This document shows positions 19,401 through 64,000 of a stretch of 64,000 nucleotides of DNA, one piece after another. The number at the start of each line of letters is the position of its first letter. The stretch's first letter is position 1. The translations under genes were made by a program, and so were the position numbers. The notes under the pieces are model-generated. The model was not told the origin of the DNA. It worked only from the letters and a program-made list of their open reading frames with translations, and made no database searches. Origin of the DNA: Candidatus Parcubacteria bacterium (lineage in GTDB: Bacteria; Patescibacteriota; Patescibacteriia; Magasanikbacterales; UBA922); assembly GCA_002869205.1 (NCBI GenBank), contig PKTJ01000066.1, positions 187 through 64,186 on the forward strand. The letters are read 5' to 3'.

Positions 19401-19904
19401 GCAGCCAAGAAAAAAATAACAAAAAAAGGTTCTGTCATGATGTTTGCGACAATTCAAGATATGACAGGTCGTATTGAAATGTTGGTTTTTCCAAAAGCAT
19501 ATGAAGTAAGTAAAGAAGTTTGGGAAGCGGGTAATGTTGTGTGTGTGGTAGGAAAAACTCCGCGCGAAGATGGAGACAATAAGATATTTGTAGAAAAGGC
19601 ATATGTATTAACGAAAGAAAATATTGAACAAATTAGTGGGTATCTATCTTTTAATACAAGTGGTGTAGAAAAAAAGAAGAAAGAAGAAAATAGTAAGTAT
19701 ATTACAATAGGTTTGACTCAAGATGAGGTCAAGGAATATACCAATGATCTAAAAGTATTGTTAGAAGAATATCCGGGTAATTACGATGTATATGTTCGTG
19801 TTGGTATGAACACAATTCGTGCTCAATCACAAGTTGACTGGAACGAAGAGTTGAAGGATAGACTTGAGTCACTGATAGGTCCAGGTAAGGTAGAAGTGCG
19901 GTAA
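16428..19904 (+). CDS. dnaE: DNA polymerase III alpha subunit
   Basis: PHP domain start (HLHVHSHYSLLNG), polymerase core motifs, OB-fold C-terminus; 1158 aa. Confidence 0.95.
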   Translation: MDFVHLHVHSHYSLLNGLSKVKALVKAAKKRGFKALALTDYGSMYGAIEFYQACLAEDIKPIIGFEAYVAPRSRHDKDPEKDKGVYHIMLLAENFEGYQNLMRLSSIGHLEGFFNDKPRVDKELLKEFGKGVIALSGPIEGEVPQLLKDNKDDEAKKVVAEFEEIFGKGNFYLELQDHPAIEGQMQVNTKLIQLSKDVNTPLVVTRDVHYLDFNEAEAQDVLRCISNGWKVGQSDREDYRHVDRSFNTAQDIISRFKHVPEAIENTVKIADRVDLDIPLNNWHFAPVDLPEGKNADEHLRDEAYRCVSDFYGDTTQELKDRIEYELDIIKTKGYSPYFICVADYVRYAKRNGIVESTRGSAAGSLVSYILGITTVDPMRFKLPFERFLNPYRPSPPDIDTDFADDRREEMIEYMTRKYGEDKVAQIITFGTMAARASVRDVGRALALSYGFCDQVAKLIPQGAQGFPMTIERALKEEPDLKKLYEMNEDVKRLLDLAQQVEGCARHTSIHAAGVVVSPTPLTDFSPVQRETGGDKLTTQYEMHSVETAGVLKNDFLGIRNLAILGNAVVIVEKTTGDKIDIYNLPLDDTKTFEMLARGETMGVFQLAGAGMTRWVKELKPNRIEDIMAMVALYRPGPMESIPEYIHRKYNPETVSYLDPRLEKILDASYGLLVYQDDVMLTAIELAGYDWMEADKFRKAMGKKVPEEMAKQKIKFYDGCKNHGKVPKNIIDELWTAIEPFAAYGFNKAHAASYGIVAYQTAYMKAHYPVQYMTSVLQAESGDADKISAIVGECRRINIEVLPPDVNESFKSFAMVSKPGEKGRIRFGLTAIKNVGDHICDVIYRERKANGQYKDLEDFLDRIDDKDLNKKSVESLAQAGALDCFGYDRGVLMANSENILGYIKQIKEKRTTNQDSLFAGTDIALDSKVRIDDTEPATLEQKLVWEKTLLGIYVSSHPFAYYEKFLGNKVVPVAEVEEKDRDSWVVVGGVIDAAKKKITKKGSVMMFATIQDMTGRIEMLVFPKAYEVSKEVWEAGNVVCVVGKTPREDGDNKIFVEKAYVLTKENIEQISGYLSFNTSGVEKKKKEENSKYITIGLTQDEVKEYTNDLKVLLEEYPGNYDVYVRVGMNTIRAQSQVDWNEELKDRLESLIGPGKVEVR

Positions 19905-19922: not shown

Positions 19923-19958
19923 TCCCTCTGGCAAAAACCAGAGGGATTTATTTTTCTT
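19923..19958 (+). terminator. rho-independent terminator after dnaE
   Basis: TCCCTCTGG-caaaaa-CCAGAGGGA followed by a T-run. Confidence 0.7.
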
Positions 19959-20034
19959 TGGAGGCGCCGTCAAGAAACGACGCCTGTCGGGGAGGGGAAC
20001 GCCCCGCCGCCCGAAGGCGGCGGGAGTAGAGCGT

Positions 20035-21078
20035 TCAGCGAGTTGTGCGGATCGAGGTGTCCCAGTGGTGGTGGTAGATGATGTGACCGAGGTCTGTGAG
20101 CCACGAGACGACACGGATCTTGCCCGACTTGACGAAGGGGTTCAAGAACTGTCGATTCACGAGCGGGACCGTGTCTGCGACGTAGAGGCGATCGAGCGGC
20201 GAGTGATCGAGCTGCAGGTTCTCCACCGCGTCACCACACAGAATGGCGTGCGTAACGATTGCCCAGAATTCGTGGATCTCGGCACGTTCTCGGACGGTGT
20301 TAGCTGTCCTCAGATTCGTGCTGACTGTCGCCGCTTCATCGTCCACAGACAGAACCAGTGCACCTTCGAGTTCATCGACATCTCGATAGATGTCTTTGAT
20401 CTCGACGTCGCGGCTGTTTCCACGACGTTTGTCACCAAACGTCGTGAAGATGTCACAGTCGAGCTCGTCGGCCACGTTCGTGACAGCTTCCTCATAGCGC
20501 TTCTTGGCGCCGTTGTCTGGGTAGTGTACGACGATCTTGTCGTGAGTTTGCAGCGCTTCTTCGAGCGCCTGCTTGAATACGCGCTTGAACATACTCACTT
20601 CGGTGATGAGACCAGGGTCACCGGCCATCACAACCTGCGAAGCGTGGAGATCGACGGAGATGATTCTGTCGAGTCTGCCTTGCGCGGCCGTCTTCATCAG
20701 CGAGACGATGAGGGGTGGAAGAGCGAACTCGTCGTCAGCTTCGTCTCTGTCGGATCGCGAGAGCGGGAAGTAGGCGGTGATGACGGTGATTCGGGCGGCT
20801 CTTCTGCCTGCCACGTGGTTGAGCAAGAAGAATAGGTTCACGAGCATGTCGGGGGTGCCAGGGCCACTGGTCAAGATCACGCAGTCGTGACCGCCGATGT
20901 GCTTCTTCTTCAGCTTGATGAAGGGTTCTTTGCTGCTGCGCCGACCGAAGATCGGAGACGCGATGTCGACAGGCGTCTCTTTCCTTTCGATCTGCTCTTT
21001 GAGAAGGGTGGCGATGTCTTCGAATCCGGGCATGGGAACGAGCGTGAGCGCGCCGTGCTGGCTGTGTCTGTCTTTCAT
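20035..21078 (-). CDS. divergent ribose-phosphate pyrophosphokinase (PRPP synthetase) family protein, second copy
   Basis: Aligns along its whole length to Prs (HDCVILTSG..RITVITAYFPLSRSDRD..DLHASQ..KRRGNSRDVE..SVDDEAATVST). Signature loops are altered: GYARQDRK becomes PLSRSDRD and DTGGT becomes EAATVST. GAGGG ribosome-binding site 8 nt before the ATG. Confidence 0.7.
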   Translation of the reverse strand: MKDRHSQHGALTLVPMPGFEDIATLLKEQIERKETPVDIASPIFGRRSSKEPFIKLKKKHIGGHDCVILTSGPGTPDMLVNLFFLLNHVAGRRAARITVITAYFPLSRSDRDEADDEFALPPLIVSLMKTAAQGRLDRIISVDLHASQVVMAGDPGLITEVSMFKRVFKQALEEALQTHDKIVVHYPDNGAKKRYEEAVTNVADELDCDIFTTFGDKRRGNSRDVEIKDIYRDVDELEGALVLSVDDEAATVSTNLRTANTVRERAEIHEFWAIVTHAILCGDAVENLQLDHSPLDRLYVADTVPLVNRQFLNPFVKSGKIRVVSWLTDLGHIIYHHHWDTSIRTTR

Positions 21079-21158
21079 AACGAAACCCTCGTAATTAGAT
21101 CAAGAAAACGACCTCCCCGGCCGTCTCCTCGATGTGTGAAATGAGCAAACATGTCACC

Positions 21159-21188
21159 ATAATAATTGTTTTGAGTTGTCATGTCAAC
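21159..21188 (-). promoter_or_regulatory. sigma70-like promoter for the prs-like gene (TTGACA-17-TATTAT)
   Basis: Minus-strand -35 at 21183-21188 and -10 at 21159-21164, between the udk terminator and the prs-like ribosome-binding site. Confidence 0.55.
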
Positions 21189-21202
21189 CATAAAAAAAAC
21201 GA

Positions 21203-21233
21203 ACACCCCGAGGCCGAAGCCACCGGGGTTTTA
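21203..21233 (-). terminator. rho-independent terminator downstream of udk
   Basis: Minus strand AAAACCCCGGTGGC-ttcg-GCCTCGGGGTGTT followed by T8. Confidence 0.65.
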
Positions 21234-21239
21234 GTTCGC

Positions 21240-21863
21240 TCAGGATGGGTGGAATCCGTTGAGCATCTGTTCGAGTCCTGCCTGAATGAACAGGCGTGCG
21301 ATCTCGTTGTTCCCGCCGTGTGGCACGATCAGGTTCGCGTGTCTGCGGGTCGGGTGACAGAATTCGTCGTGCATGGGTGCGACAGTGCCTTCCCATTGCT
21401 CGAGGATACCTTCGAGTTTGCGTCCTCGTTCCAGAACGTCTCGTTTGATACGACGCGCGAGACGTGTGTCTCCGGGCGTGTCGACGTAGATCTTGATCTT
21501 GGCGAGGCTTACCAATTCAGGTACAGCGAGCGCGAGTATTCCTTCGGCGATGATGAACGTTTTTGGGTCCACCTGGACACGCTCAGGTTCACGCGAATGC
21601 GTGTTGTAGTCCCAGCGCGGGGTCTGGACCGATACACCATCGACGAGCTCGCGAACGTGTGACACCATTAGGATGTTGTCGAAAGACCCTGGGTGGTCGA
21701 AGTTGCCGTTCTGGACGTAGGGAGACTCGGGGTCGTAATAGAAGTCGTGGCAGATTCGACAGCACTTGTCATCGCCGAGCATTCGGATGATTTCACGCGC
21801 GAGCGTTGTCTTACCAGAACCAGTGCCACCAGCGACGATGATCACGACAGGCGTGTTTTCCAT
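21240..21863 (-). CDS. udk: uridine/cytidine kinase
   Basis: P-loop GGTGSGKTT, NFDHPGSFD, FIIAEGIL, YVDTPGDTRLARRIKRDVLERGR, ANLIVPHGGNN; near colinear with E. coli Udk. Start placed at MENTPVV, which has GGAGG 9 nt upstream. Confidence 0.85.
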   Translation of the reverse strand: MENTPVVIIVAGGTGSGKTTLAREIIRMLGDDKCCRICHDFYYDPESPYVQNGNFDHPGSFDNILMVSHVRELVDGVSVQTPRWDYNTHSREPERVQVDPKTFIIAEGILALAVPELVSLAKIKIYVDTPGDTRLARRIKRDVLERGRKLEGILEQWEGTVAPMHDEFCHPTRRHANLIVPHGGNNEIARLFIQAGLEQMLNGFHPS

Positions 21864-21959
21864 CTTGAGCTTCCTCCAATTTGCAACAAAGCAGGCCATC
21901 GGCCTGCTCCTTTGTTGTATTTCAGAAATATTGTAACGCTACTTTTGTAGTTTGTCAAA

Positions 21960-22220
21960 TTATTCTACATCTCCATTTTCTTTGATTTTTTCGTCTTCGT
22001 ATGGAGCGATGTGTTTTCTATAGAGTTCGAGTTTACATGATTCAAGTGCACCAACAAGTTCGTTCCAGTCTTTATATCTTCCCTCACCTTTGTTCAATAA
22101 AAGAAGTTTTGTGATGGTGTAATTTAGGTCACCAGCACGCTGGTCTGTGCTTATGAGCTTTGCAAGTTCTGTTATTGTTGGATCAAGACGTTCGCGGTCT
22201 TGTGGTAGGATGTATGGCAT
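21960..22220 (-). CDS. hypothetical protein (86 aa)
   Basis: AT-rich, host-like ORF between island A and prs. Confidence 0.4.
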   Translation of the reverse strand: MPYILPQDRERLDPTITELAKLISTDQRAGDLNYTITKLLLLNKGEGRYKDWNELVGALESCKLELYRKHIAPYEDEKIKENGDVE

Positions 22221-31048: not shown

Positions 31049-31120
31049 GGCCCCATCGTCTAGTGGTTAGGACATCTGGTTTTCATCCAGAAAACAGGGG
31101 TTCGATTCCCCTTGGGGCTA
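31049..31120 (+). tRNA. tRNA-Glu (anticodon TTC)
   Basis: Manual cloverleaf: acceptor GGCCCCA/TGGGGCT, anticodon stem-loop TCTGG-TTTTCAT-CCAGA, T-loop GGGGTTCGATTCCCC; CCA not encoded. Confidence 0.75.
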
Positions 31121-31135
31121 CGAATTATCGTACTA

Positions 31136-31164
31136 TTGACATATATGTGTTTATATAGTACTAT
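31136..31164 (+). promoter_or_regulatory. sigma70-like promoter upstream of rplJ (TTGACA-17-TACTAT)
   Basis: Read directly from the sequence. Confidence 0.5.
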
Positions 31165-31189
31165 ATTCACATCCATAGACAGCAGGTGC

Positions 31190-31295
31190 CATAAGGCTTA
31201 ATTTCCTGCCGAGGTAACTCTTAGCTAATTTTAGCTAAAATAAGGTCGAAGAGTACCGAAAAGTCTGTGGTTAAAAACCACAGTTTTATTTTTTC
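31190..31295 (+). promoter_or_regulatory. rplJ (L10) leader with intrinsic terminator/attenuator
   Basis: Structured leader ending in CTGTGG-ttaaaaa-CCACAG plus a T-run 6 nt before the rplJ ATG; analogous to L10-leader autoregulatory elements. Confidence 0.45.
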
Positions 31296-31300
31296 AAGTT

Positions 31301-39511: not shown

Positions 39512-40513
39512 ATGAAAAAGGTAGGAATTGACCTCGGTACAACTAATATACTTGTTTTCGTTCCTAAGCGAGGTATTGTTATTAATGAGCCATCGGTGGT
39601 AGCAATCTCAAAAGGAGACGGAAAAATTCTTGCAGTTGGTGGTGAAGCAAAAGAAATGATTGGACGTACTCCCGATACTATTATTGCAGAGAGACCACTC
39701 AAAGATGGTGTGATTGCAAGTTATAAAACAACAGAAGCTATGCTTCGTTATTTTATCAACAAGGCAATCGGTGGTATGCGACTTTTTCGACCAGAAGTAA
39801 TGGTTGCTGTTCCTGCAGGTATTACATCTACTGAACGTCGTGCGGTTATTGACGCTGCGATGGCAGCAGGTGCAAAAGCAGCTTACATTATAAAAGAACC
39901 TATTGTTGCGGCAATCGGAGCTGATATTCCTATTGGTAGTGCGTCAGGTCATATGATTATTGATATTGGTGGAGGTACAGCAGAAATCGCTGTGATTTCA
40001 CTCGGCGGTATTGTATCAGTAGGATCTGTGAGGATCGGTGGAAATAAATTTGATCAATCAATTGCAGAATATGTTCGTAGAAAATATGGTTTGGCAATAG
40101 GGGACAGAAGTGCCGAAGAGGCAAAAATTAGTGTTGGTTCTGCTATGTTTATGGATCAGCCTCTGAGTATGGAAGTAAAAGGACGAGATATGATCTCAGG
40201 ACTTCCGCGGACTATCAAAATTACTTCTGATGATACTACTGAAGCATTGCAACATGACCTTGAGGGTTTGGTAGAAGCAGTAAAAGATGTACTTCATAAG
40301 ACACCACCAGAATTGTCAGCTGATGTTATGGATAAAGGCATTATTATGTCCGGTGGTTCAAGTCAGCTGAGAAACCTAGATGAACTCATTGCTCAGGCGA
40401 TTGGTGTGGCAACATATGTGGCAGAAGAACCATTGCTTTGTGTGGCAAAAGGAACAGGTATTGCACTTGAAAATTTAGATAATTACAAACGGTCAGTTTT
40501 GGCCACAAAATAA
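39512..40513 (+). CDS. mreB: rod shape-determining protein MreB
   Basis: Actin-fold phosphate motifs (GIDLGTTN, DIGGGT) and typical length. Confidence 0.95.
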   Translation: MKKVGIDLGTTNILVFVPKRGIVINEPSVVAISKGDGKILAVGGEAKEMIGRTPDTIIAERPLKDGVIASYKTTEAMLRYFINKAIGGMRLFRPEVMVAVPAGITSTERRAVIDAAMAAGAKAAYIIKEPIVAAIGADIPIGSASGHMIIDIGGGTAEIAVISLGGIVSVGSVRIGGNKFDQSIAEYVRRKYGLAIGDRSAEEAKISVGSAMFMDQPLSMEVKGRDMISGLPRTIKITSDDTTEALQHDLEGLVEAVKDVLHKTPPELSADVMDKGIIMSGGSSQLRNLDELIAQAIGVATYVAEEPLLCVAKGTGIALENLDNYKRSVLATK

Positions 40514-40672
40514 TTTATTAACCTGGGTGGCGTGTAATTCGCCAACTGGACGTGAGCCCAGTACCGTATGGTACAGGGTATAGCCGTCGATCCACATTTA
40601 GTGGAATGATTCCGTGCAACTCGGAAGCCAACCGTATAGTCGGGACCCTGACGTTAGTCGGGGTATCACATT
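40514..40672 (+). ncRNA. candidate structured RNA / cis-regulatory leader (GC-rich, multi-hairpin) between mreB and the EamA transporter
   Basis: About 52% GC in an AT-rich genome, with at least five local hairpins (TGGCG-tgtaatt-CGCCA, GTACC-gtat-GGTAC, CCAC-attta-GTGG, GGAA-tga-TTCC, CTGGG...CCCAG). The track ORFs on the minus strand here look spurious. Identity unknown. Confidence 0.35.
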
Positions 40673-41680
40673 GTGTTCCTGCATAGTGTGATAATAAGGA
40701 AATATATGAAGAAAACATATGTTGGTGCTTTGAGCATCATGCTCGCAGCTTTTTTGTGGGCGTTTGATGGTGTGGTTCTCACACCATGGATTATGAAATT
40801 GGGTCTCTATGACGTCCCAATTTTTGTTTTTATGTTCCACGCAGTAGGATCATTATTTTTGTCCTACTTTTTTATTACCAAGAGACAAGAACTAAAAAAG
40901 CTTGATTGGAAAGATTGGGGCGCATTTGTTTTGGTTGGTGTATTTGGAGGAGCGCTCGGAACCATGGGAATTGTTGGGGCAATTATTTTTGTACATAGTC
41001 ATCATCTAAATATTTCGGTTGTATTATTACTCCAAAAATTACAGCCTATTTTTGCTATTTTGCTTGCTATCTTAATTCTCAAAGAGCGTCCAAAGATACA
41101 ATTTTATGTACTGGCGGCTTTTGCATTGGTTGGTAGTTACTTTTTAACATTTGGATTTGGTATGCCAGATTTGAGTGCGGGTGGTATGTTGATACCTGCA
41201 CTTCTTGCGCTACTTGCTGCGTTTTCATTTGGTTCATCAACTGTATTTTCCAAACGTGCGATTACAAAGGTGAGTCACGGCACAGGAACTATGCTTAGAT
41301 TTTATATCACTACACTTGTCATGATTGTGATTATCGCAGCCGTGTCATTGTTGAAAGCTTTCGGGATGGAGATATCGTATGCAGGGTTTGGTGGATTTAG
41401 TATTGTTGGCTGGAAATTGATTGGTGCATTTGTTGTAGTTGCTCTAACAACAGGAATTTTTGGTATTTTTATCTATTATTATGGACTTAAGCGTATCATG
41501 GCTTCACGTTCGACTATTTACGAACTTATGTTTCCTGTAAGTTCTATCTTTCTTGAATGGCTCATTCATGACAAGACATTGAACATAGGGCAATGGTTTG
41601 GTACTATAGTACTGTTCACTGCAATGATTTTTATTGCACGTCTAAGTAAATCATATGAAAAAAACAGTGAAATTATATAA
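40673..41680 (+). CDS. EamA/DMT family transporter (likely start at MKKTYVG, 40706)
   Basis: Ten TM helices in a duplicated 5+5 EamA pattern. Confidence 0.7.
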   Translation: MFLHSVIIRKYMKKTYVGALSIMLAAFLWAFDGVVLTPWIMKLGLYDVPIFVFMFHAVGSLFLSYFFITKRQELKKLDWKDWGAFVLVGVFGGALGTMGIVGAIIFVHSHHLNISVVLLLQKLQPIFAILLAILILKERPKIQFYVLAAFALVGSYFLTFGFGMPDLSAGGMLIPALLALLAAFSFGSSTVFSKRAITKVSHGTGTMLRFYITTLVMIVIIAAVSLLKAFGMEISYAGFGGFSIVGWKLIGAFVVVALTTGIFGIFIYYYGLKRIMASRSTIYELMFPVSSIFLEWLIHDKTLNIGQWFGTIVLFTAMIFIARLSKSYEKNSEII

Positions 41681-42128
41681 TGTATTTTTTCCAATCTATG
41701 TAATGGTTTTTTTTCCACCAATAATTTTTTTGGTACTCATTGGGAACTTTGTAATTGACGCGGTTGTCATAGTGTCTGTTCTTTATTTCAGTAAAGCATT
41801 GTCTACTATAAAGCATAAAAGAAAATACATTACAAAGGCTTGGGGCTATGGTTTTTTGGCGGATATTTGTGCGGCGTTGCTTTTGCTTGTGCTAGAATGG
41901 GCTGGTCTTGTATATTCTTACAAACCATTTGAATCAGTATCTAACGTAATGTTTATATTTTTTGCTATTGTTGTTGGCGGTGTGTTTGTTGGAATATTCA
42001 ATTATAGATTAGCTCTTCGAAATGGTCTTAATAAAAAGATTGCTTTGCGTCAAGCATTGTTTATGGGGATTATTACTGCACCATGGATGTTTTTATTACC
42101 TCTAAGTTTATTTGGTTTTAATATTTGA
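41655..42128 (+). CDS. hypothetical small membrane protein
   Basis: Four predicted TM helices; TGA stop overlapping the next ATG (ATGA). Confidence 0.45.
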   Translation: MKKTVKLYNVFFPIYVMVFFPPIIFLVLIGNFVIDAVVIVSVLYFSKALSTIKHKRKYITKAWGYGFLADICAALLLLVLEWAGLVYSYKPFESVSNVMFIFFAIVVGGVFVGIFNYRLALRNGLNKKIALRQALFMGIITAPWMFLLPLSLFGFNI

Positions 42129-42129
42129 T

Positions 42130-43233
42130 ATGAAAATAGGGATAGACGCATCACGAGCTAATGAAACACAAAAGACCGGTGTAGGTTGGTATGCTTATCA
42201 TGTGATACAAGAATTGAAAAAACAAACACCTCGCGATGTCGAGGTTGTTTTGTATACGAATAAACCACTTCAAGGTGACCTTGCTGACTTGCCAAGTGGA
42301 TGGACACAAAAAGTACTCAAATGGTCACCAAAAAGATTGTGGACGCAGGTGAGGTTGAGTTGGGAGATGTTATTACATCGACCAGATGTTTTGTTTATTC
42401 CAGCTCATGTGTTCCCATTGATTCATCCCAAGAAAACAGTAATGACAGTGCATGATATTGCAGCTATAACATTTCCTGGGAGCTATAGTTGGTTTGAGAG
42501 GTGGTACAGTGTGTGGTCTGCACGCGTAGCTTTGAAAAAGTTATGGAAAATAATTACGCCGTCAGAGTTTACGAAGAGTGAGTTAGAAAGTTTAAAAGTT
42601 AGAAAGTTTAAAAGTGATAAAATTCATGTGATTCATCATGGGTATGATAAGAGGTATAGTGAGAATGAGAATAAGGTTGAGATTGAAAAGGCGTTAGACA
42701 AGTACGGATTGAAGAAACCATTTCTCATGAGTATTGGTCGTCTTGAAGAAAAGAAAAACACGGTAAGAATTATCAAAGCATTTGAGAAATTACGGCTTAC
42801 GACTGAAAACTTGCAGCTCATTCTTATCGGTAATCCAGGTCATGGTTATGACAAAGTGAAAAAGGTGATTGACAATTCAAAATATAAAGAGGATATTATT
42901 ACACCTGGTTGGGTAGACAATAATGATCTACCAATCTTGATGAGCGGTGCAGAAGTATTTGTTTTCCCGAGTCTCTATGAAGGGTTTGGAATCCCTGTAC
43001 TTGAATCCCTGGCAAGTGGCACACCTGTCGTTACCTCAAAAGGTAGTTGTCTAGAAGAAGTTGGTGGAGACGTGTGTATATATGTTGATCCAGCCGATGT
43101 TGATAGTATTGTGCATGGTATTTCAGACGCTTTTGATGCATCAGAGATTAGAATTCAACAGGGCTTGAAACATACAGAAGGTTTTTCGTGGGAAAAGTGT
43201 GCTAAAAAGACACTTGAGACATTATTGTCTTGA
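42130..43233 (+). CDS. family 4 (GT-B) glycosyltransferase
   Basis: C-terminal EX7E region (EGFGIPVLESLASGTPVVTS) and GT4 N-terminal domain. Start placed at MKIGIDAS. Contains an in-frame 16-bp tandem duplication. Confidence 0.8.
   Translation: MKIGIDASRANETQKTGVGWYAYHVIQELKKQTPRDVEVVLYTNKPLQGDLADLPSGWTQKVLKWSPKRLWTQVRLSWEMLLHRPDVLFIPAHVFPLIHPKKTVMTVHDIAAITFPGSYSWFERWYSVWSARVALKKLWKIITPSEFTKSELESLKVRKFKSDKIHVIHHGYDKRYSENENKVEIEKALDKYGLKKPFLMSIGRLEEKKNTVRIIKAFEKLRLTTENLQLILIGNPGHGYDKVKKVIDNSKYKEDIITPGWVDNNDLPILMSGAEVFVFPSLYEGFGIPVLESLASGTPVVTSKGSCLEEVGGDVCIYVDPADVDSIVHGISDAFDASEIRIQQGLKHTEGFSWEKCAKKTLETLLS
42577..42616 (+). repeat. in-frame tandem duplication (TTAGAAAGTTTAAAAG)x2 inside the GT4 CDS
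   Basis: Encodes SELESLKVRKFKS. Same motif family as the intergenic AAAGTT repeats. Confidence 0.8.
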
Positions 43234-53775: not shown

Positions 53776-53849
53776 GCCAACTTAGCTCAGCTGGTTAGAG
53801 CAACTGTTTTGTAAACAGTAGGTCCGGGGTTCGAATCCCCGAGTTGGCT
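53776..53849 (+). tRNA. tRNA-Thr (anticodon TGT)
   Basis: Manual cloverleaf: acceptor GCCAACT/AGTTGGC, D-arm GCTCAGCTGGTTAGAGC, anticodon loop TTTGTAA, T-loop GGGGTTCGAATCCCC. Confidence 0.75.
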
Positions 53850-53853
53850 CGAA

Positions 53854-53937: not shown

Positions 53938-54019
53938 GGGTCGGTTCCCGAGCGGTCAAAGGGGGCAGACTGTAAATCTGCTGGCTCCGCCTTCGAAGGT
54001 TCGAATCCTTCCCGGCCCA
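53938..54019 (+). tRNA. tRNA-Tyr (anticodon GTA), long variable arm
   Basis: Manual fold: acceptor GGGTCGG/CCGGCCC, anticodon stem-loop GCAGA-CTGTAAA-TCTGC, variable arm GGCTCCGCC, T-loop GAAGGTTCGAATCCTTC. Confidence 0.75.
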
Positions 54020-54096
54020 CAAAATCCTTGTGTGAAATACATGAGGATTTTTTTATTGTTTAGATGTTTTTTTTAAGGTATACTTTCTTTGAATAT

Positions 54097-54190: not shown

Positions 54191-55627
54191 ATGACAAAAC
54201 AAACAAAAATTGTATGTACCATAGGTCCAGCATGTGAAACCGTGGAGACGCTCGAAAAAATGGTGAAAGCGGGGATGAATGTTGCACGATTGAATTTTTC
54301 TCATGGTTCATACGAGCACCATAAAAAACTTATAGCCAATATTCGTGAAGTAGAAAAACGTACAGGCGAACCTGTCGCAATTGTGCAGGATTTGCAAGGA
54401 CCAAAAATTCGTATTGGGGATTTGGGTGAAAAGGGTATCAAGCTTATACCGGGTGAAGATATATATTTTTCTACTGACATGACCGATAGGCAATCTATTC
54501 CTATTCAGTATGAACACTTGCATGAATATATAAAACGCGGCGAGAAGATGTTGCTCGACGATGGAAAAATGGAAGTAAAAATTTTGGATGTAGAAGGAAA
54601 GAAAATAAGAACAAAAATTATCGTAGGTGGTCTGTTGCTCGCGCACAAGGGAATCAATATTCCCGAATCCGATTTGTCTCAAATGCAAGTGCTTACATCA
54701 AAAGACAAAAGTGATGTGCGCTTTGGTGTGGAAAATGGTGTGGATATGATTGCGTTGTCCTTTGTCATGAAGCCAGATGATATTTTGGATCTACGTTTTC
54801 ATGTAAAACAAGTGGAATCAGAATTAGATATTGTAGGCAATCAGCCAATTCGACTTATTGCTAAAATAGAAAAACCAGAAGCAGTAGAACGTATGGAGGA
54901 GATTGTTCAGGTGGTAGATGGAATCATGGTGGCTCGTGGAGATCTAGGACTTGAGATCCCAGCCGAAGAAGTTCCTCTTGTGCAGAAAAAACTAATTGAC
55001 ACAGCGATGGAAGCTGGAAAGCCAGTGATTGTTGCTACGCAGATGCTTGATTCTATGCAGCATAATCCACGTCCAACGCGTGCTGAGGTGTCTGATGTAT
55101 CAAATGCCGTTATTGATCATACTGATGCAGTCATGCTTTCCAATGAGACGGCAGCAGGGGAATATCCTGTTGAGACTGTCGCAACTATGGCACGAATCAT
55201 TGCAGAGACTGAAAAATCTCATTATGATGATTTGCCATTTCGAGAACCAAAGACAAAGATTCACAAGATCGACGATACTATTAGTGGATTGTCTCGAGTC
55301 ATGGCAGAAAAGATTGGTGCAAAACTTATTTTGGCTGCTTCCATCTCTGGTGAAACAGGCCGACTCATTTCTCGTTATCGTCCCGAGTTTCCTATTGTTG
55401 TTGCGACAAGTACAGATCGTGTGCAACGTCAATTGAATTTATCATGGGGTGTACGACCGTTTATCCTCATGCCGTGTAATTCTATTGAAGAGCTTGTGGA
55501 TCGTGCAGTGATACATCTAAAAAAAGAAGATTTGGTCAAAATTAATGACAAAATTATTGTGGTAGCAGGGGAGCCAGTCGGACATGCAGGACATGTGAAT
55601 TTATTGGAAGTTAGAGAAGTAAAGTAG
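54191..55627 (+). CDS. pyk: pyruvate kinase
   Basis: KIVCTIGPA, MNVARLNFSHG, MVARGDLG motifs; 478 aa. Confidence 0.95.
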   Translation: MTKQTKIVCTIGPACETVETLEKMVKAGMNVARLNFSHGSYEHHKKLIANIREVEKRTGEPVAIVQDLQGPKIRIGDLGEKGIKLIPGEDIYFSTDMTDRQSIPIQYEHLHEYIKRGEKMLLDDGKMEVKILDVEGKKIRTKIIVGGLLLAHKGINIPESDLSQMQVLTSKDKSDVRFGVENGVDMIALSFVMKPDDILDLRFHVKQVESELDIVGNQPIRLIAKIEKPEAVERMEEIVQVVDGIMVARGDLGLEIPAEEVPLVQKKLIDTAMEAGKPVIVATQMLDSMQHNPRPTRAEVSDVSNAVIDHTDAVMLSNETAAGEYPVETVATMARIIAETEKSHYDDLPFREPKTKIHKIDDTISGLSRVMAEKIGAKLILAASISGETGRLISRYRPEFPIVVATSTDRVQRQLNLSWGVRPFILMPCNSIEELVDRAVIHLKKEDLVKINDKIIVVAGEPVGHAGHVNLLEVREVK

Positions 55628-55711
55628 TGCGTAGTAGGGGGTGTGCCTGCCCGTCCGAAGCCTCGGCGTAGGAGGGTGAATATGCTTGAGGTGAGAGAGG
55701 TGGGGTAAATA
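55628..55711 (+). pseudogene. GC-rich relic of a second pyruvate kinase C-terminus (..VVGGVPARPKPRRRRVNMLEVREVG*) immediately after the pyk stop
   Basis: In-frame translation matches the host pyk tail VVAGEPVGHAGHVNLLEVREVK, with G/C at the synonymous positions. Confidence 0.5.
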
Positions 55712-55727
55712 ATATTTTAAACAAAAA

Positions 55728-55756
55728 AACATCGCCTGTATGGCGGTGTTTTTAAT
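55728..55756 (+). terminator. rho-independent terminator
   Basis: CATCGCC-tgta-TGGCGGTG followed by a T-run. Confidence 0.6.
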
Positions 55757-55864
55757 TATACTAACTTCGCTCTGTTTGGACTCATTATCTTCGTCTTTTA
55801 ACAAAGCTAATGAATCGGGCGGGAGCGAAGGTAGCATGGTTGTGAGTAGCAGTCGCGCCGTCCG

Positions 55865-56575
55865 CTAGTTCACGGTGTGGTCGTCGCGCCACCTGGCACA
55901 GATGTCGTCCGGGTACTTCCACGTACCGTCGTCTCGGGTGTCGAGACAGTGGATCATCGGATCTTCCTGTGAGGTAGAGATGTTGTAGGATGTGCCATCT
56001 GGTGTGATGATGATGACCGTCGAGGTGATCGGCTTGTCACCTTCATGTTTCCAGTCAGTCGGTCCACGATACGGGCGAGGGGAGATGTCGAGGTGGGTGT
56101 TTTCATCGCAGTTCTTACCCTCGATGTAGAAGCAGCGACCGTATTCCGGGATGGGATAGATGCCGTGAAACTCTATGTGACAGACCGCGTGCGTGATGCA
56201 CTCGTGAGGAAGTTCCTCACCGAGACAGTCACTCACGGTGGCGCACTCGTAGTTGTCGTAGTCTGGCGCGGGGAGCTCCGACGCTTCGATCGAATCGACG
56301 TAGATGAACGAGTCGACTTCGATTTCACCCACGAGAACCCACTCGTAGATGGATCCGTCCGGCGTCCAGAAGGGGCCGTCGAGCCAGATGACTTCATCAC
56401 GCTTGGGTTGTGCCGCCATCGTGGCGGCCTTGTCCAGCGTCTTCATCTTATCCGTCGAGTCCTGCTGCTCGGCTTCCAGGGACGCGCCGAATCCGATCGC
56501 GATCGACGCGAACAGGACGAGGGTCATCATAGGGACGTTGACGATGGTTCTGATGCTGGCCGCTCGGTTGCTCAT
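55865..56575 (-). CDS. secreted/membrane-anchored cysteine-rich hypothetical protein (~236 aa)
   Basis: Signal/TM segment MMTLVLFASIAIGFGASLEA and 10 Cys. Start placed at MSNRAAS, which has AGGAG 7 nt upstream. The plus-strand ORFs 56045-56710 and 56349-56807 are Arg-rich antisense artefacts. Confidence 0.6.
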   Translation of the reverse strand: MSNRAASIRTIVNVPMMTLVLFASIAIGFGASLEAEQQDSTDKMKTLDKAATMAAQPKRDEVIWLDGPFWTPDGSIYEWVLVGEIEVDSFIYVDSIEASELPAPDYDNYECATVSDCLGEELPHECITHAVCHIEFHGIYPIPEYGRCFYIEGKNCDENTHLDISPRPYRGPTDWKHEGDKPITSTVIIITPDGTSYNISTSQEDPMIHCLDTRDDGTWKYPDDICARWRDDHTVN

Positions 56576-56626
56576 TTTCGAGCTCCTCATTGTGTCCGTG
56601 GGCTTTTTCGAGCCCTGTTGCGATTC

Positions 56627-56818
56627 TTATCTTCCGAGACTGCAGGTGCCACAGTGCTTGCCGCAGTATCCTCCGCCCTGGCAAATGCCACGAGGTTCTT
56701 TGGGAGGTAGTGGCGGAAGGTCCTTGAACCTTTCTTCCATCGGAAGCAGCGGAGCTTTCTCCTGGTCTCCTTCCGGAACTGCGATTTCTTCTGGGTCTGT
56801 GGTATGACGAGAGGTCAT
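56627..56818 (-). CDS. small Cys-rich protein (63 aa from MTSRHTT; C-terminal CQGGGYCGKHCGTCSLGR)
   Basis: AGAGGAG 6 nt before the internal ATG; four Cys in a C-x5-C-x3-C-x2-C arrangement; sits 50 bp upstream of the secreted protein gene. Confidence 0.5.
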   Translation of the reverse strand: MTSRHTTDPEEIAVPEGDQEKAPLLPMEERFKDLPPLPPKEPRGICQGGGYCGKHCGTCSLGR

Positions 56819-56963
56819 CGGTGACTCCTCTATGCTGGAGAGTACGTTAATCATTTTTTACCAAAAAAACGGTATTTTGTCAATGTTATGTAAGAATAGT
56901 GGGACGTTTTGATTCCCGATTATTTTATGGTATACTTATGACCACTATTTCTAACCTTATTTT

Positions 56964-59900
56964 ATGGTTGCAAAGGGGGCGAAAAAATCTCGAAAAGACA
57001 AACATATTTTGTGGTTCAAAGAAATCGGCATCAAGGATGTTCCACTTGTTGGTGGAAAGAATGCAAGTCTTGGAGAGATGTATAACACGGTTACAAAAAA
57101 AGGCATCAATGTCCCAAATGGTTTTGCAGTTACCGCTGCGGCATATTGGGATTTTTTGGATAAAACAAATCTGAAAGCAAAGATAAAAAAAGAATTAAAA
57201 GATCTCGATGTAACAAATGTTCGTGAGCTTGCACGTGTAGGAAAAAAAGTTCGCAACATGGTTCTTGCAGCAAAATTTCCTGCACATTTGGAAAAGGAAG
57301 TGGAAAAAGCATATGCAGAATTATCTAAACTAGAAAAAACAAAAAATATCGCAGTTGCTGTGCGATCTAGTGCAACTGCAGAAGATTTGCCTGATGCGAG
57401 TTTTGCTGGTCAGCAAGAAACATATTTGAATATAAAAGGCGTCAAGTCACTTCAGACTGCAGTAAAAAAGTGTGTCGCGTCGCTCTTTACGAATCGCGCC
57501 ATCTCATATCGTGAGACAAAAGGATTTGACCATCTCACTGTTGCCCTGTCAGTTACGGTTCAGGTGATGGTTCGTTCAGATGTGGGTTCTTCTGGAGTAC
57601 TCTTTACACTCGATACAGAATCAGGTTTTCCTGGAGTGGTACTCATCAATTCATCCTACGGTCTTGGAGAATACGTGGTAAAGGGTCGGGTAACACCAGA
57701 TCAATTTTATGTTTTCAAAGAAGGAATAAAACAAGGCAAAAAATCTATTATTAGTAAAATTATTGGTTCAAAAGAAGTAAAACTTGTATATGGAGCCACT
57801 AGTGGTACGAAGCAACTTGCAGTAAAGAAAGCTGATCAAAATAAATTTTCTATTACACCAGATGAGGTTATTAAATTGACGAAATGGGGAATGCAGATTG
57901 AAGAGCACTATAAACGACCTCAAGATATTGAATGGGCAAAAGATGGTAAGACAGGAAAGCTCTATATTGTCCAAGCTCGACCTGAGACAGTAAAATCTCA
58001 TACAAATAAATCGGTGATTGAGACATATATTCTCAAGAAAAAGGGTAAACAAGCACTTACCGGTATTTCAGTAGGACAAAAGATTGGTGCAGGAAAAGTT
58101 CGTGTGATTGACAATCCAAAGCAGATGAAACAGTTCAAAAAAGGCGAAGTGCTCGTGACTCGTATCACTGATCCAGACTGGGAACCAATCATGCGTATTG
58201 CAAGTGCTATTGTCACAGAGCAGGGTGGTAAGACAAGTCATGCTGCTATTGTAAGTCGTGAGCTTGGTGTGCCATGTGTTGTTGGTGCGCGTGCTGCACG
58301 CAAGACTTTGAAAACAGGGAAACAGGTTACCGTGAGTTGTGCTGAGGGCGATGAGGGTATTATTTATAATGGTATTCTTCCGTTTGAAGTCAAGAAAACT
58401 GAAATTAAAAAAGTAGAAAAAACAAAAACAAAAATCATGATGAATGTTGGTGATCCTGACAATGCATTTAGTTTGTCATTTTTACCAAATAATGGCGTAG
58501 GTCTGGCACGTGAAGAATTTATTTTTTCCAATTTTATCCGTATTCATCCACTTGCGCTCGTTCACTACAATAAGCTCAAGGATAAGAAAGCCAAGAAAAA
58601 GATTGCTGAGATGACAAAAGGGTATAAGAAAAAGACTGACTATGCAGTAGATAAGCTTGCGGAAGGTATTGCACGAATTGCAACAGCATTTTATCCAAAT
58701 GAAGTAATTGTTCGCTTGTCTGACTTCAAAACAAATGAATATGCAACACTTCTTGGTGGAAAAGAATTTGAACCAAAAGAAGAAAACCCAATGATTGGAT
58801 GGCGTGGGGCAAGTCGTTATTATTCAAAAGAATATAAGCCAGGATTTAAGATTGAGTGTGAAGCACTCAAGAAAGTTCGTAATGAATGGGGTCTGACCAA
58901 TGTGATTACTATGGTGCCATTTTGTCGTACACCAGAAGAAGGAAAAAACGTGCTCAAGACTATGGCAGACTTTGGGCTCAAACAAGGTGAGAATGACCTC
59001 AAAGTATACGTAATGTGTGAAATCCCAAGTAATGTTATCTTGGCAGAAGAGTTTGCAAAATTATTTGACGGATTTAGTATTGGGTCAAATGATTTGACTC
59101 AGCTTACTTTGGGTGTTGATCGTGATTCATCTCTAGTGAGTCATGTGTATAGTGAAAAAAATAAGGCAGTAACTAAATTGATTCGTGATGTGATTCGTGT
59201 TGCCCACAAACATAAGCGAAAAGTAGGTATTTGTGGACAAGCTCCGAGTGATTATCCTGAATTTGCAGAGTTTTTGGTACGTGAAGGTATTGATAGTATT
59301 TCTCTTAATCCTGATACCGTTGTTTCTACGCGTGAACGTATTGCCTATGTAGAAAAAACTCTAGGAAAGAAAGGTAAGAAGACACACAAATCATATCTTG
59401 GTCTTGTTGCCGGTCTTGCTGTCCTTTCTGCTAGTCTGATGATGGTGGGTGGTGGCTGTGATTCAATTCGAGGTGATTTACCAACCCCTCATACCGACCT
59501 CATCGATATGAGCCCTGCAGAGATTCGTGAACGTGTAGAGAAAAAATTAAATGAAACACAGGAATTAGAAAAACAAAAACCAACACAAGAATTAAAAGTA
59601 AATAGTTTTGAACATTTTTCAATCAAATATCCACAAGAATGGTCTGTAGAAAATTGGAATGGTGGTGTCACGATGAGAAATAATGAGACAGGGGAGTATG
59701 TGAGTTTGTTTGATCAGCTTGTTGGTCACCCTGTGGCAGAAGGTGTGAAGGAGATTGTTACAGTTGGTGGAAAAGATGCAACGAGGTATGTAGAAGATTA
59801 TAAGGGTGACGATACAGAGTCAGCATCATTTACCGTAGTTGAGATTGATATGGAAGGATATGTTTTTGAAATCAACAGCAATGCAGATAATTTTGATGAT

Positions 59901-60135: not shown

Positions 60136-61173
60136 ATGCATATGATGTTATCTCAAAAAGAAAAATTATTTTTAATACCTCTTGGGCTTGTTGCTATTGT
60201 GGTAGCTGCGGTTGGTGGGTATGTTATTTCTGAAGTGGGTTTTTCTGGAGGTGGTGAGGAAAGACAAATAGTTTCATATAGTGAAGAATCACCTGATCAA
60301 GATGAAAATAAGATCGATACTAAAGTGGAGGATCAGATGATTTCGTGTGTCATGGTAGACAAAAGTTTGGATATTGTTCCAGACGAAGGTCTGGGTGTGT
60401 ATTACAAGACACGCTTGTTTCCTGTAGAGACAAATGTTAGGCATGATATTTTTGTAAATGATTCAGCAATTATTGCGTTTAAACATTTTAATGGAGGAGG
60501 GGACCCCTATAATTATGATGAGGAAAAGTGGAGTAAGTTTGCTGGACAAGGACCTTCTTATTTTGTCGAAATGCTAGATTTTTCTGCACCTAGGAATGTT
60601 TCTGTTATCCCAACTTTTTCTATTCCTCATGAGGTTATTACCAATGACAATTTTATGGGTAATATCACAAATGTGAGTTATGGTGATAGTTGGTTTATTT
60701 TCTCTCGGGGGTTTGCAGCGTTTACTGGTTCGGTGGTGGATCAGAGATTGACAGAGGTTGCCTATGATCGTAAGTTTCGAGAGATTGTTATTCCAGAAGA
60801 ATACACTGCTGATCCAGAATTTCGTTCTGGTCCGGTTCATGGTTTTACTGTTAATAATAATACGTCAACCATAGGAGACATGCTTGGTCTTTTGCGTGAT
60901 GATACCATTGTGTTTTCTTTGCAAAAAAATACTAGTACATATATTGGTTATGAAATAAAAAATGACTCATGGATAGAAGTTTCTGTAGATGAGATATATG
61001 ATGTTGATATGACAGTCTATGAAGAGGTTGGTGGACCACGTATATACAAACCCCTTGATCTTATCAAGGAGTATGGTTGTTTTGCACTTCCAACACCGCG
61101 TGGTGATATGGTTTTTACGTCGCATGAGCTTGGTAATCTGAATGACGAGATGGATGTGTGGTTTGCTCGATAG
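60136..61173 (+). CDS. hypothetical membrane-anchored protein (345 aa)
   Basis: N-terminal TM helix; no known motif. Confidence 0.45.
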   Translation: MHMMLSQKEKLFLIPLGLVAIVVAAVGGYVISEVGFSGGGEERQIVSYSEESPDQDENKIDTKVEDQMISCVMVDKSLDIVPDEGLGVYYKTRLFPVETNVRHDIFVNDSAIIAFKHFNGGGDPYNYDEEKWSKFAGQGPSYFVEMLDFSAPRNVSVIPTFSIPHEVITNDNFMGNITNVSYGDSWFIFSRGFAAFTGSVVDQRLTEVAYDRKFREIVIPEEYTADPEFRSGPVHGFTVNNNTSTIGDMLGLLRDDTIVFSLQKNTSTYIGYEIKNDSWIEVSVDEIYDVDMTVYEEVGGPRIYKPLDLIKEYGCFALPTPRGDMVFTSHELGNLNDEMDVWFAR

Positions 61174-61292
61174 GAATATAACATAATATCAAAAAATGAT
61201 CCGGAGAGGGTCATTTTTTATTTGCTTTTTATTTTTGGTCGTGTTAGGTTTTATATATTGTCAACAATGTTCTCCACCAGATGAGGTCTGAT

Positions 61293-62045
61293 ATGAGCAT
61301 CAGGTTTACGTGTGAAGTCGAGACGCCTGACGGTGTCGTGCGATTCGTTCTTGATTCGTGGCGTTCTTCGTCGGAGGATGATCGAACCATCGAGCCGGAG
61401 TTCTATGTGGATTACTGTGCGGATGGTCAGATCCCGCAGGGTCCTCATCACGAGGTCGAGATCCTCGAGCCGGCGAAGATCGGTGGTCACGAGCACGAAG
61501 AAGTCATCCACTATCACATCAATCGTGGTGGTGGGCAGTTCGTGTGCTGGACCGGTTCTCTGCCGTCGCTCAGTGCGGTCAGTACCATGCTTCGCGTGTG
61601 GTGTGCTGGGACTGCCTTCACCATGGCGACTGGTAAGGACTTCACGGTCGAGTTCGAGGGTGATTTCGATCAGATCGTACGCGGCCTTTCTGAGGCCGGA
61701 TACAAGGTAGTTCTGTGTCGTAACGACCTGCAGCAGTTCGAAATTAGTATGACGTTTTCTCATAACGTGACATGGTCTGCTTTCAGCTCACCGCTGGTCA
61801 AGGAGATCGTGGCGCGGCTGCCGCGTGAGCAAGAAGACGTCTTGCGTGCAGTAGTAGAACACTTGCGTTCTCGCACACCACACGAGAACGGCGCGATCGA
61901 AGACAGTCTCATGGTTGCCTGGGGTGTGTTCTGTCAGAGGCTTCGGGGTAATTTGGACCTCAGCGAGCCTATCGCGACGCCATTGGCGATCGGTGATCTG
62001 AGCGGGTGGGTTCTGTGGGCTGAAGAAAGCGCCAACATGTGCTGA
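61293..62045 (+). CDS. hypothetical cytoplasmic protein (250 aa)
   Basis: ORF with GC-rich codon usage; start placed at MSIRFT, which has GAGGT upstream. Confidence 0.5.
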   Translation: MSIRFTCEVETPDGVVRFVLDSWRSSSEDDRTIEPEFYVDYCADGQIPQGPHHEVEILEPAKIGGHEHEEVIHYHINRGGGQFVCWTGSLPSLSAVSTMLRVWCAGTAFTMATGKDFTVEFEGDFDQIVRGLSEAGYKVVLCRNDLQQFEISMTFSHNVTWSAFSSPLVKEIVARLPREQEDVLRAVVEHLRSRTPHENGAIEDSLMVAWGVFCQRLRGNLDLSEPIATPLAIGDLSGWVLWAEESANMC

Positions 62046-62118
62046 AGGGAGGGTGTTGTGGCACGTTCACCACCAAGGGGAAGCCCTGACTGATCGCACC
62101 GAACAGTCGGGGACAGTC

Positions 62119-62190
62119 AAAAACAGTCTAGTTTATAGACTGTTTTTTTGTGTTTTTACCCTTGACATAAGGGTTTTTTTGTGATACAAC
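62119..62190 (+). promoter_or_regulatory. terminator hairpin (AAAAACAGTCTA-gttta-TAGACTGTTTTT) followed by sigma70-like promoter TTGACA-17-TACAAC
   Basis: Perfect palindrome 62119-62150; -35 at 62162-62167, -10 at 62185-62190; AGGAG at 62227-62231 before the ATG at 62239. Confidence 0.6.
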
Positions 62191-62238
62191 TCGAGCAGGT
62201 TTGAGAAAGCGAAACCAGGAAACAACAGGAGTGACATC

Positions 62239-63060: not shown

Positions 63061-63147
63061 GCTGAGGAGGTGCCTCAAGAACCCGACGCCCAAAGCGTCT
63101 GGCTGGTCCCGCAGGGATCATTCAGCGAGCGTGCATCGGGATCAGTC

Positions 63148-63209
63148 AAAAACAGCTTTTTCTAAAAGGCTGTTTTTGTTTTGACCCACTCACAAAAACA
63201 TGTTAAAAT
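63148..63209 (+). promoter_or_regulatory. second copy of the terminator-promoter spacer module (hairpin, then TTGACC-17-TAAAAT)
   Basis: CAGTCAAAAACAGC...GCTGTTTTTGTTTTGACCC parallels the module at 62110-62167. Confidence 0.55.
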
Positions 63210-63350
63210 AATCCACCTGTGATAAGGCGCGTGAGCGTTTTGTCACGGTTTTTTGTAATGTTGAGACAGAGGAGTGGGTTTGATAGCTTTGTTTGTGTCG
63301 GGATTGGCCCGTCGCTGGCAAGGTGTCTAACTCACTTTTCGAGGTAGTCC

Positions 63351-63974: not shown

Positions 63975-64000
63975 CCCAGCTTCGGTGGCTGAGGATCTTA

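Follow-up and report, generated by a model that had tools for sequence, protein, structure and literature searches.

A predicted divergent FMN riboswitch in the leader of an EamA-family transporter gene of a Candidatus Parcubacteria bacterium

What occupies the spacer between mreB and the gene for an EamA/drug-metabolite transporter (DMT)-family protein in a Candidatus Parcubacteria bacterium, and does it govern the gene behind it? The spacer lies in the 64,000-nucleotide stretch of DNA analyzed here (GenBank assembly GCA_002869205.1, contig PKTJ01000066.1, positions 187 to 64,186 of the forward strand; hereafter the window). An original prediction, made from the letters alone, had described positions 40514-40672 of the window as a GC-enriched non-coding region with at least five consecutive perfect short hairpins, which could be a riboswitch or leader for the transporter, a small stable RNA (for example 6S-like) or a degraded foreign fragment. 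Our analyses of the sequence identify this region as a predicted, divergent aptamer of the flavin mononucleotide (FMN) riboswitch class (i.e., the RFN element). It is probable that the aptamer and the expression platform behind it form an FMN-class riboswitch in the leader of the EamA/DMT gene and that this riboswitch would exert translational OFF control over a likely riboflavin importer.

An FMN-type aptamer between mreB and the EamA gene

The GC content of 40514-40672 is 50.9%, which ranks at the 92nd percentile among 159-nt sliding windows; the window as a whole has 39.5%, mreB 40.9% and the EamA gene 37.1%. The enrichment reported in the original prediction is clear, although "much higher" was an overstatement, as three larger islands of the window are GC-richer. 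The minimum free energy (MFE) of 40505-40725 is -78.5 kcal/mol, compared to -57.0 +/- 4.4 kcal/mol for 200 dinucleotide shuffles (z = -4.85), none of which matched it. Pfam matches on both sides place the region between mreB and the EamA gene, and the only open reading frames (ORFs) within it are short antisense or overlapping ones (40518-40718, minus strand; 40552-40686, plus strand; 40598-40840, minus strand), both as originally described.

The Rfam FMN riboswitch family RF00050 matched 40514-40661 from end to end (model positions 1-138) with 55.8 bits and an E-value of 5.6e-12 (601 nt searched), or ~6e-10 when scaled to the whole window. This match was obtained only in E-value mode. A gathering-mode Rfam scan of the whole window returned three tRNAs and an L10 leader only, because the FMN score lies under the gathering cut-off of 66.2 bits, which is an operational annotation threshold and not a structural feature. 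The shortfall is attributed to an insert in P3, a divergent J6/1 and two flagged non-pairs in P1. AdoCbl-II (15.3 bits, E = 2) and Yfr13 (E = 9) also came up but were regarded as chance matches, and neither 6S nor any other stable-RNA family was among the matches. The hairpins counted in the original prediction correspond to P2-P6 of the aptamer. The Rfam/Infernal scan that it recommended, once run in E-value mode, together with the association of the element with the EamA gene described below, singled out the riboswitch among its three options. The parts of the element and the two flanking genes are as follows (residue numbers are those of the Fusobacterium nucleatum structure, PDB 3F2Q).

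39512-40513, plus strand: mreB, 333 aa, Pfam PF06723 (1.2e-130); its TAA stop codon (40511-13) abuts the riboswitch
40514-40524, plus strand: 5' flank with candidate P1 5' strands; AUUAAC (40517-22) is the Rfam-style P1 strand and CCU (40522-24), directly 5' of J1/2, is a candidate anti-Shine-Dalgarno sequence
40525-40527, plus strand: J1/2, GGG, equivalent to G10-G12 (phosphate/ribityl contacts), from the Rfam alignment and 3F2Q numbering (PMC6298564, PMC7573352)
40528-32/40540-44, plus strand: P2 hairpin, UGGCG/UGUAAUU/CGCCA, 5 bp, two of five pairs compensatory across relatives
40547-40548, plus strand: junction pairs U40547-A40630 and G40548-C40629, equivalent to C31-G84 and G32-C83, the former C-G pair being U-A here
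40549-52/40585-88, plus strand: P3, GACG/CGUC, with a 26-nt helical extension (40554-79), -15.9 kcal/mol
40589-40590, plus strand: J3/4, GA, equivalent to G47 and A48, the latter stacking on the flavin
40591-95/40601-05, plus strand: P4 hairpin, 5 bp, varying in length among relatives
40607-40609, plus strand: J4/5, UGA, equivalent to U61, G62 and A63, with G62 a phosphate contact
40610-14/40622-26, plus strand: P5 hairpin, 5 bp, four of five pairs compensatory
40629-40631, plus strand: equivalents of C83, G84 (A here) and A85, the last stacking on the flavin
40632-34/40641-43, plus strand: P6 hairpin, CCG/UAUAGU/CGG, 3 bp, invariant in all relatives
40644-40645, plus strand: equivalents of G98 and A99, invariant in ten of ten sequences
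40706-41680, plus strand: EamA/DMT-family transporter gene, Pfam PF00892 in two stretches (5.3e-29)

The element shares with RF00050 and the impX riboswitch of F. nucleatum (PDB 3F2Q) the order of P2-P6 around one junction, conserved sequences in loops and junctions, and both junction base pairs (C31-G84 and G32-C83). It also has their contacts to the flavin (A48, A85 and A99) and to the phosphate (G10, G11, G32 and G62) (PMC6298564, PMC7573352) and, like them, lies in the leader of what is probably a flavin transporter gene. It differs from them in scoring 10 bits under the gathering cut-off, in the 26-nt P3 extension, in having A at the position of G84 together with C31U, in a J6/1 that reads CCCUG instead of UGGG and lies within a very stable hairpin, in the lack of a convincing canonical P1, in two conserved hairpins between P6 and the Shine-Dalgarno sequence, and in its host, a member of the Patescibacteria.

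Conservation and the ligand pocket

The EamA protein has more than 2300 homologs at E < 1e-10, nearly all of which are from Patescibacteria, also known as the candidate phyla radiation (CPR), with some from DPANN archaea. The only relative found among reference genomes is a metagenome-assembled genome of Candidatus Parcubacteria with 85% amino-acid identity. We gathered ~95 homologous loci (one from genome contigs, 80 from metagenomes and the rest through exact-protein look-ups), which are referred to below by locus labels (e.g., L001). The metagenome scan found the element in seven of the 80 loci (six distinct sequences), and eleven exact-protein look-ups added three further distinct examples and several close relatives without the element. 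RF00050 itself also matched the syntenic site in L001, L003, L004, L005 and L006. A covariance model, R1, built from the aptamer cores, matched 13 of 90 sources, which represent ten distinct sequences (the window, L001/L002, L003-L006, L033, L083-85, L086 and L088). Every R1 match lay immediately 5' of an EamA gene, and the window held no further match to R1. A scan of viral contigs with a 20-mer yielded two chance matches inside ORFs and no FMN match.

The element is thus found in nine other distinct loci from Patescibacteria metagenomes, each time directly 5' of an orthologous EamA gene. The gene upstream of it is mreB at most loci and a DUF2207 gene in L033 and L086. Given that the upstream gene differs in these two loci while the EamA gene is constant, the element belongs to the EamA gene.

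In alignment A3, which holds the ten cores after clade-specific loop insertions were removed by hand (a trimming that leans somewhat towards the structure), 99.5% of the cells in P2, P3, P5, P6 and the two junction pairs formed standard pairs, and nine of the 19 pairs were compensatory. None of 500 shuffles reached the observed pairing or compensation, and slid partners paired in 20-51% of cases. RNAalifold, run unfitted on six leaders, recovered P2-P5. The covariation check proposed in the original prediction therefore found conservation in relatives, the absence of which had been named as grounds for abandoning it, and the degraded foreign fragment is excluded because compensatory base changes are conserved across the nine other distinct loci.

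The P3 extension of the window is absent in L001 and present in L005, and extra hairpins are found in the varied riboswitch loops of L001 (2904-2934, in L6), L003 (1304-1351, in L2), L005 (1267-1317, in L2), L006 (1279-1347, in L2) and L086 (194-223, in L5). Several of these inserted hairpins have a common motif resembling CUUCGC-N-AAGC-U-NCG, and they could represent a recurrent structural module or a small mobile insertion. The gap between the mreB stop codon and the riboswitch also varies: L005 has a 71-nt near-perfect palindrome there (1174-1244), structured spacers of 50-130 nt are also found in L004, L006 and L088, and none is present in the window or L003. In L082, whose EamA protein is 84% identical to that of L004, a gene for a 23S-rRNA-intervening-sequence protein (PF05635; 729-1091) lies between mreB and the EamA gene in place of the riboswitch.

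For the ligand pocket, the Rfam consensus was mapped to the F. nucleatum structure numbering with an offset of +2. The mapping agrees with the published register, in which J3/4 is G47-A49, J4/5 is U61-G62, A85 stands beside J5/6 and J6/1 is 98-103 (PMC7573352, PMC3201879, bioRxiv 10.1101/389148); the roles of the contact residues were taken from PMC6298564 and PMC7573352. The flavin-contact adenines A48 (40590), A85 (40631; stacking) and A99 (40645; pairing) are present and invariant in all ten sequences. The phosphate/ribityl-contact guanines G10, G11, G32, G62 and G84 are >97% conserved in the FMN class. Four of the five are kept in the window, and the fifth, G84, is replaced by A (40630), with C31U (40547) preserving the pair as U-A. 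At this position the pair is C-G in eight sequences and U-A in two (the window and L001). G11, G32 and G62 are invariant in the ten sequences; at G10 the window has G, and L006 and L083 have A; and all five guanines are kept in six of the ten distinct sequences. Given that the stacking and pairing adenines and nearly all the contact guanines are kept, the pocket appears to be essentially canonical, and the element would most likely sense FMN made from imported riboflavin.

Expression platform and the helix that closes the junction

Between the aptamer and the EamA gene are two further hairpins and a Shine-Dalgarno sequence.

40645-52/40657-64, plus strand: hairpin A (ACCCUGAC/GUUA/GUCGGGGU), 8 bp, -13.1 kcal/mol, containing A99, the J6/1 equivalent and the 3' strand of the Rfam-style P1 (40653-58)
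40665-76/40681-92, plus strand: hairpin B, 12 bp, -13.7 kcal/mol, extending beyond the interval of the original prediction; seven of 12 pairs compensatory, and also predicted by RNAalifold
40696-40702, plus strand: Shine-Dalgarno sequence AAGGAAA, in which AGG (40697-99) is the proposed 3' strand of the closing helix

Hairpin A shows C-G to U-A covariation and was also predicted independently by RNAalifold. The tetraloop of hairpin B (40677-80) is of a conserved UUCC type and is complementary to the Shine-Dalgarno sequence. Both hairpins are kept in the window, L001, L003, L006 and L083, where 97% of cells are paired, compensatory changes occur in eight of 20 pairs, and 0-1 of 500 shuffles are as good. 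They are followed by a purine linker of 4-5 nt, the Shine-Dalgarno sequence and the ATG start codon. Alignment with homologs places the start of the EamA gene at ATG 40706 (MKKT...). GTG 40673, preceded by GGGG as a possible Shine-Dalgarno sequence, was considered as a start codon and rejected, as it is not conserved, the homologs begin at ATG 40706 and L003 has an in-frame stop codon upstream.

No terminator was found between the aptamer and ATG 40706, and no sigma70-like promoter was found on the plus strand near the mreB stop codon and the aptamer. The terminator-like hairpin with a U-run at 40731-45, which lies inside the ORF, was rejected as the riboswitch terminator because the U-run encodes a conserved AAFLW motif that is also found in homologs without a riboswitch. 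With no terminator present, and with the mreB stop codon so close that an intergenic promoter would not fit, the riboswitch most likely acts on translation initiation, in a transcript that would extend from mreB. The predicted strength of the Shine-Dalgarno sequence averages -6.4 kcal/mol in the riboswitch-bearing genes and -0.8 kcal/mol in 59 riboswitch-less homologs, most of which have no recognizable Shine-Dalgarno sequence; for this comparison, which took in the start regions of L002-L081, the start codons were assigned approximately and a generic anti-Shine-Dalgarno sequence was assumed. The strong sequences of the riboswitch-bearing genes are of the AAGGAA type, and this contrast, too, favors a translational output.

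The mreB stop codon also lies only 3 nt from the first candidate P1 nucleotide (40511-40524). A ribosome terminating on mreB would therefore cover J1/2 and the 5' strand of the closing helix, so that coupling between mreB translation and riboswitch folding is possible.

How, then, might the aptamer be wired to the ribosome-binding site? In each of the sequences, the pyrimidines directly 5' of J1/2 complement the Shine-Dalgarno sequence and vary with it, as listed here (5' pyrimidines:Shine-Dalgarno).

Window and L001, CCU:AGG
L003-L006 and L083, UUCC:GGAA
L088, CCCU:AGGG
L086, UUUCU:AGAAA
L033, UUC:GAA

Farther upstream, eight of the ten sequences (all but L086 and L088) have a UU(U/C)AU that is complementary to the AUGAA at the start codon; in the window these are UUUAU (40514-18) and AUGAA (40706-10). 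The CCU:AGG closing pairs are present in the MFE structure of the window and the equivalent pairing in those of L004, L006 and L083, while CC:GG closing pairs, along with hairpins A and B, appear in the unfitted RNAalifold consensus of six leaders. We propose that CCU (40522-24), aided by UUUAU, would pair with AGG (40697-99) and AUGAA, and that this pairing of the Shine-Dalgarno sequence and start region would replace the P1 closing helix, with hairpins A and B as clade-specific stable insertions in the J6/1 segment. Binding of FMN would stabilize the otherwise marginal closing helix and thereby mask the ribosome-binding site, and less importer would be made when flavin is plentiful (i.e., an OFF switch). 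This specific arrangement, in which the Shine-Dalgarno sequence and start region act as the 3' strand of an FMN-stabilized, repressing P1-equivalent helix, is put forward tentatively, at something just short of an even call; both the direction of the switch and the identity of its closing helix are deduced from sequence.

Two known translational FMN riboswitches, those of Bacillus subtilis ypaA/ribU and E. coli ribB, sequester the Shine-Dalgarno sequence in a separate sequestor hairpin that forms once P1 is stabilized. The element of the window resembles them in having no terminator, a Shine-Dalgarno sequence close behind the aptamer and an expected FMN-dependent masking of the ribosome-binding site. 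It differs from them in that no such sequestor appeared in secondary-structure modeling (a nested sequestor hairpin was considered and set aside, as RNAfold leaves the Shine-Dalgarno sequence mostly unpaired in both states) and in that its closing helix may have the Shine-Dalgarno sequence itself as the 3' strand.

A number of observations weigh against the proposed riboswitch or this arrangement of it. Only ~10 of the ~95 homologous loci carry the element, its RF00050 score is below the gathering cut-off, and in the window G84 is A and J6/1 is CCCUG rather than UGGG. The anti-Shine-Dalgarno helix of the window is 3 bp long with -2.2 kcal/mol, own and cross duplex energies (-4.8 versus -3.7) are not decisively different, and RNAfold leaves the Shine-Dalgarno sequence mostly unpaired with or without aptamer constraints. 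If hairpin A persisted in the bound state, its terminal A-U pair would have to open to free A99. To our knowledge, there is no precedent in the FMN class for a closing helix two hairpins away from P6. Finally, the hairpin-A loop of L006 and L083 is significantly complementary to the 5' flank (1 of 500 and 2 of 500 shuffles, respectively), which points to a possible additional or alternative switching helix. Weakness would be expected of a closing helix that should form only with ligand; it follows, too, that the evidence for this helix is suggestive and not decisive.

The main alternative keeps the same aptamer and gives it a conventional switch, in which P1 would consist of AUUAAC (40517-22) and GUUAGU (40653-58), and hairpin A would be the ligand-free alternative that sequesters A99, J6/1 and the 3' strand of P1. 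Once freed by ligand binding, GUCGGGGU (40657-64) could pair with the UUCC loop of hairpin B and so alter access to the Shine-Dalgarno sequence; taken literally, this would be an ON switch. The Rfam alignment places P1 at this position (40516-23 with 40652-59, six real pairs and two flagged non-pairs); hairpin A, which is conserved with covariation, overlaps the 3' strand of this P1 as well as A99; the hairpin-A loop of L006 and L083 is complementary to the 5' flank well above chance; and hairpin B has a conserved UUCC-type loop that complements the Shine-Dalgarno GGAA as well as the GGGR of the hairpin-A 3' strand. The P1 so formed has, however, -3.4 kcal/mol in the window and is no better than chance there, as 191 of 500 shuffled loops are as good, and we therefore rejected it as the regulatory helix. 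It is also unlikely to win thermodynamically, because its 3' strand sits in hairpin A, which at -13.1 kcal/mol is ~10 kcal/mol more stable. In L001, which retains hairpin A, a U.U mismatch disrupts this P1, in L004 and L005 there is no overlap between the hairpin and the candidate P1, the complementary 5' segment is at differing positions among relatives, and ON logic poorly fits an importer. We consider the conventional switch unlikely.

The ligand, the regulated gene and their meaning

The pocket raises a second alternative, in which the aptamer is of the FMN type but has changed its specificity, for example, to riboflavin or some other phosphate-less flavin, as in the rare variant FMN riboswitches of clostridia. 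Two subtypes of these variants (1 and 2), from Clostridioides difficile and others, share with the element of the window an FMN-like fold, at least one phosphate-contact G changed to A and a position before transporter genes, and the variants so defined by G-to-A changes reject FMN (PMC6298564). The replacement of G84 by A in the window and L001 (one of the five contact guanines), the A at G10 in L006 and L083 and the departure of J6/1 from the consensus would be in keeping with such a shift. In the variants, however, several contact guanines are changed and the genes behind are of the COG3601, MFS or MATE types (PMC6298564), while the element of the window has one changed guanine and precedes a COG0697-type gene, so that it falls outside the variant subtypes. 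Subtype 2 riboswitches are, moreover, ON switches with terminators (PMC6298564). Among the relatives, too, no more than one contact guanine is altered per sequence, the altered C31-G84 is retained as a U-A pair, and none of the five guanines is changed in six of the ten distinct sequences. A shifted specificity is thus improbable. More improbable still is the reading that the element is what is left of a riboswitch in decay and without function, or that some unrelated structured RNA (a 6S-like small RNA) or foreign fragment merely looks like the FMN model: the sub-threshold Rfam score, the weak P1 and the patchy distribution (the close relatives L082 and L089 lack the riboswitch, and the L089 spacer is 35 nt) would suit it, but pairing is near-complete with many compensatory changes and invariant ligand contacts although the EamA proteins of the element-bearing sequences are just ~60-70% identical, the position relative to the EamA start is fixed whatever the upstream gene, and the best matches to other Rfam families are those with E = 2 and E = 9.

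The EamA protein yields only a generic DMT match in NCBIfam (TIGR00950, 71.5 bits versus a cut-off of 230). A homolog, P0111, that is 48% identical over 96% of the query is a fusion of EamA with a CTP-dependent riboflavin kinase (PF01982, 3.3e-29; NCBIfam ribK_Meth, 1.7e-24) and is found on two metagenomic contigs (L096, 4001-5287; L097, 735-2021). The obvious reading of this fusion would be import of riboflavin followed by its phosphorylation. It makes the EamA gene 40706-41680 most likely a riboflavin importer, its substrate being deduced from the kinase fusion. [quoted passage not shown] RibN of alpha-proteobacteria and ImpX resemble the protein of the window in architecture and context, each being a multi-pass EamA-repeat permease behind an FMN riboswitch (PMC4418817, PMC6298564), and it is on these that the likeness is drawn. 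They differ from it in that the present protein has the weak generic DMT match alone and belongs to a family found widely in Patescibacteria and DPANN archaea, in most cases with no riboswitch.

Behind the EamA gene, a 157-aa ORF (41655-42128) overlaps its 3' end by 26 nt and has a weak, sub-threshold match to the three-transmembrane-segment YLATT family (E = 8.8e-4); a GT4 glycosyltransferase gene (42112-43233) comes next. Other features of the window concern its base composition and its RNA genes. The three GC-rich islands (20001-22000, 55001-57000 and 61001-64000) have 50-58% GC against a background of ~37% and include the ORFs 20035-21078 (minus strand), 55865-56590 (minus strand) and 63351-63974 (plus strand), the last of which is Cys-rich with a lipoprotein-like N-terminus. 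Horizontal acquisition of genes or a chimeric assembly may account for these islands. Bordering the first of them, directly after a 1158-aa ORF (16428-19904), is a strong terminator-like hairpin at ~19925-19955 (CCCTCTGG...CCAGAGGG) with A- and T-runs on either side. The RNA features found by the Rfam scan are as follows.

31049-31121: tRNA-Glu, with the ribosomal protein L10 leader directly after it
31155-31299: ribosomal protein L10 leader (RF00557, 72.8 bits)
53776-53850: tRNA-Thr
53938-54020: tRNA-Tyr

An FMN riboswitch before a flavin transporter gene is a textbook arrangement, and its recognition here explains a previously unannotated structured spacer. In the literature that we searched, no description of FMN riboswitches in Patescibacteria was found. 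What is new here is the lineage of the host, an Rfam score under the threshold, hairpins that are frequently inserted into different loops among relatives, the G84A/C31U pair and the unusual 3' architecture. Standard Rfam thresholds miss FMN riboswitches in Patescibacteria, because the loop insertions and the divergent P1 and J6/1 cost ~10 bits.

The 3' architecture presents a modest but real puzzle as to how an FMN fold is wired to translation. It is doubtful, though conceivable, that this architecture defines a real structural subclass. The fuller proposal is comparably speculative: a subclass of FMN riboswitches in Patescibacteria in which P1 would be replaced, two stable hairpins would be inserted in J6/1, the Shine-Dalgarno sequence would serve as the 3' strand of the closing helix and phosphate recognition would perhaps be relaxed (G84A/G10A), and which would single out an EamA family with no earlier assignment as the means by which CPR bacteria and DPANN archaea import riboflavin. 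Such organisms are generally regarded as reliant on vitamins from other cells. Taken together, the riboswitch and the EamA-riboflavin kinase fusion point to a specific function, the uptake of riboflavin, for an EamA family that is widespread among them.

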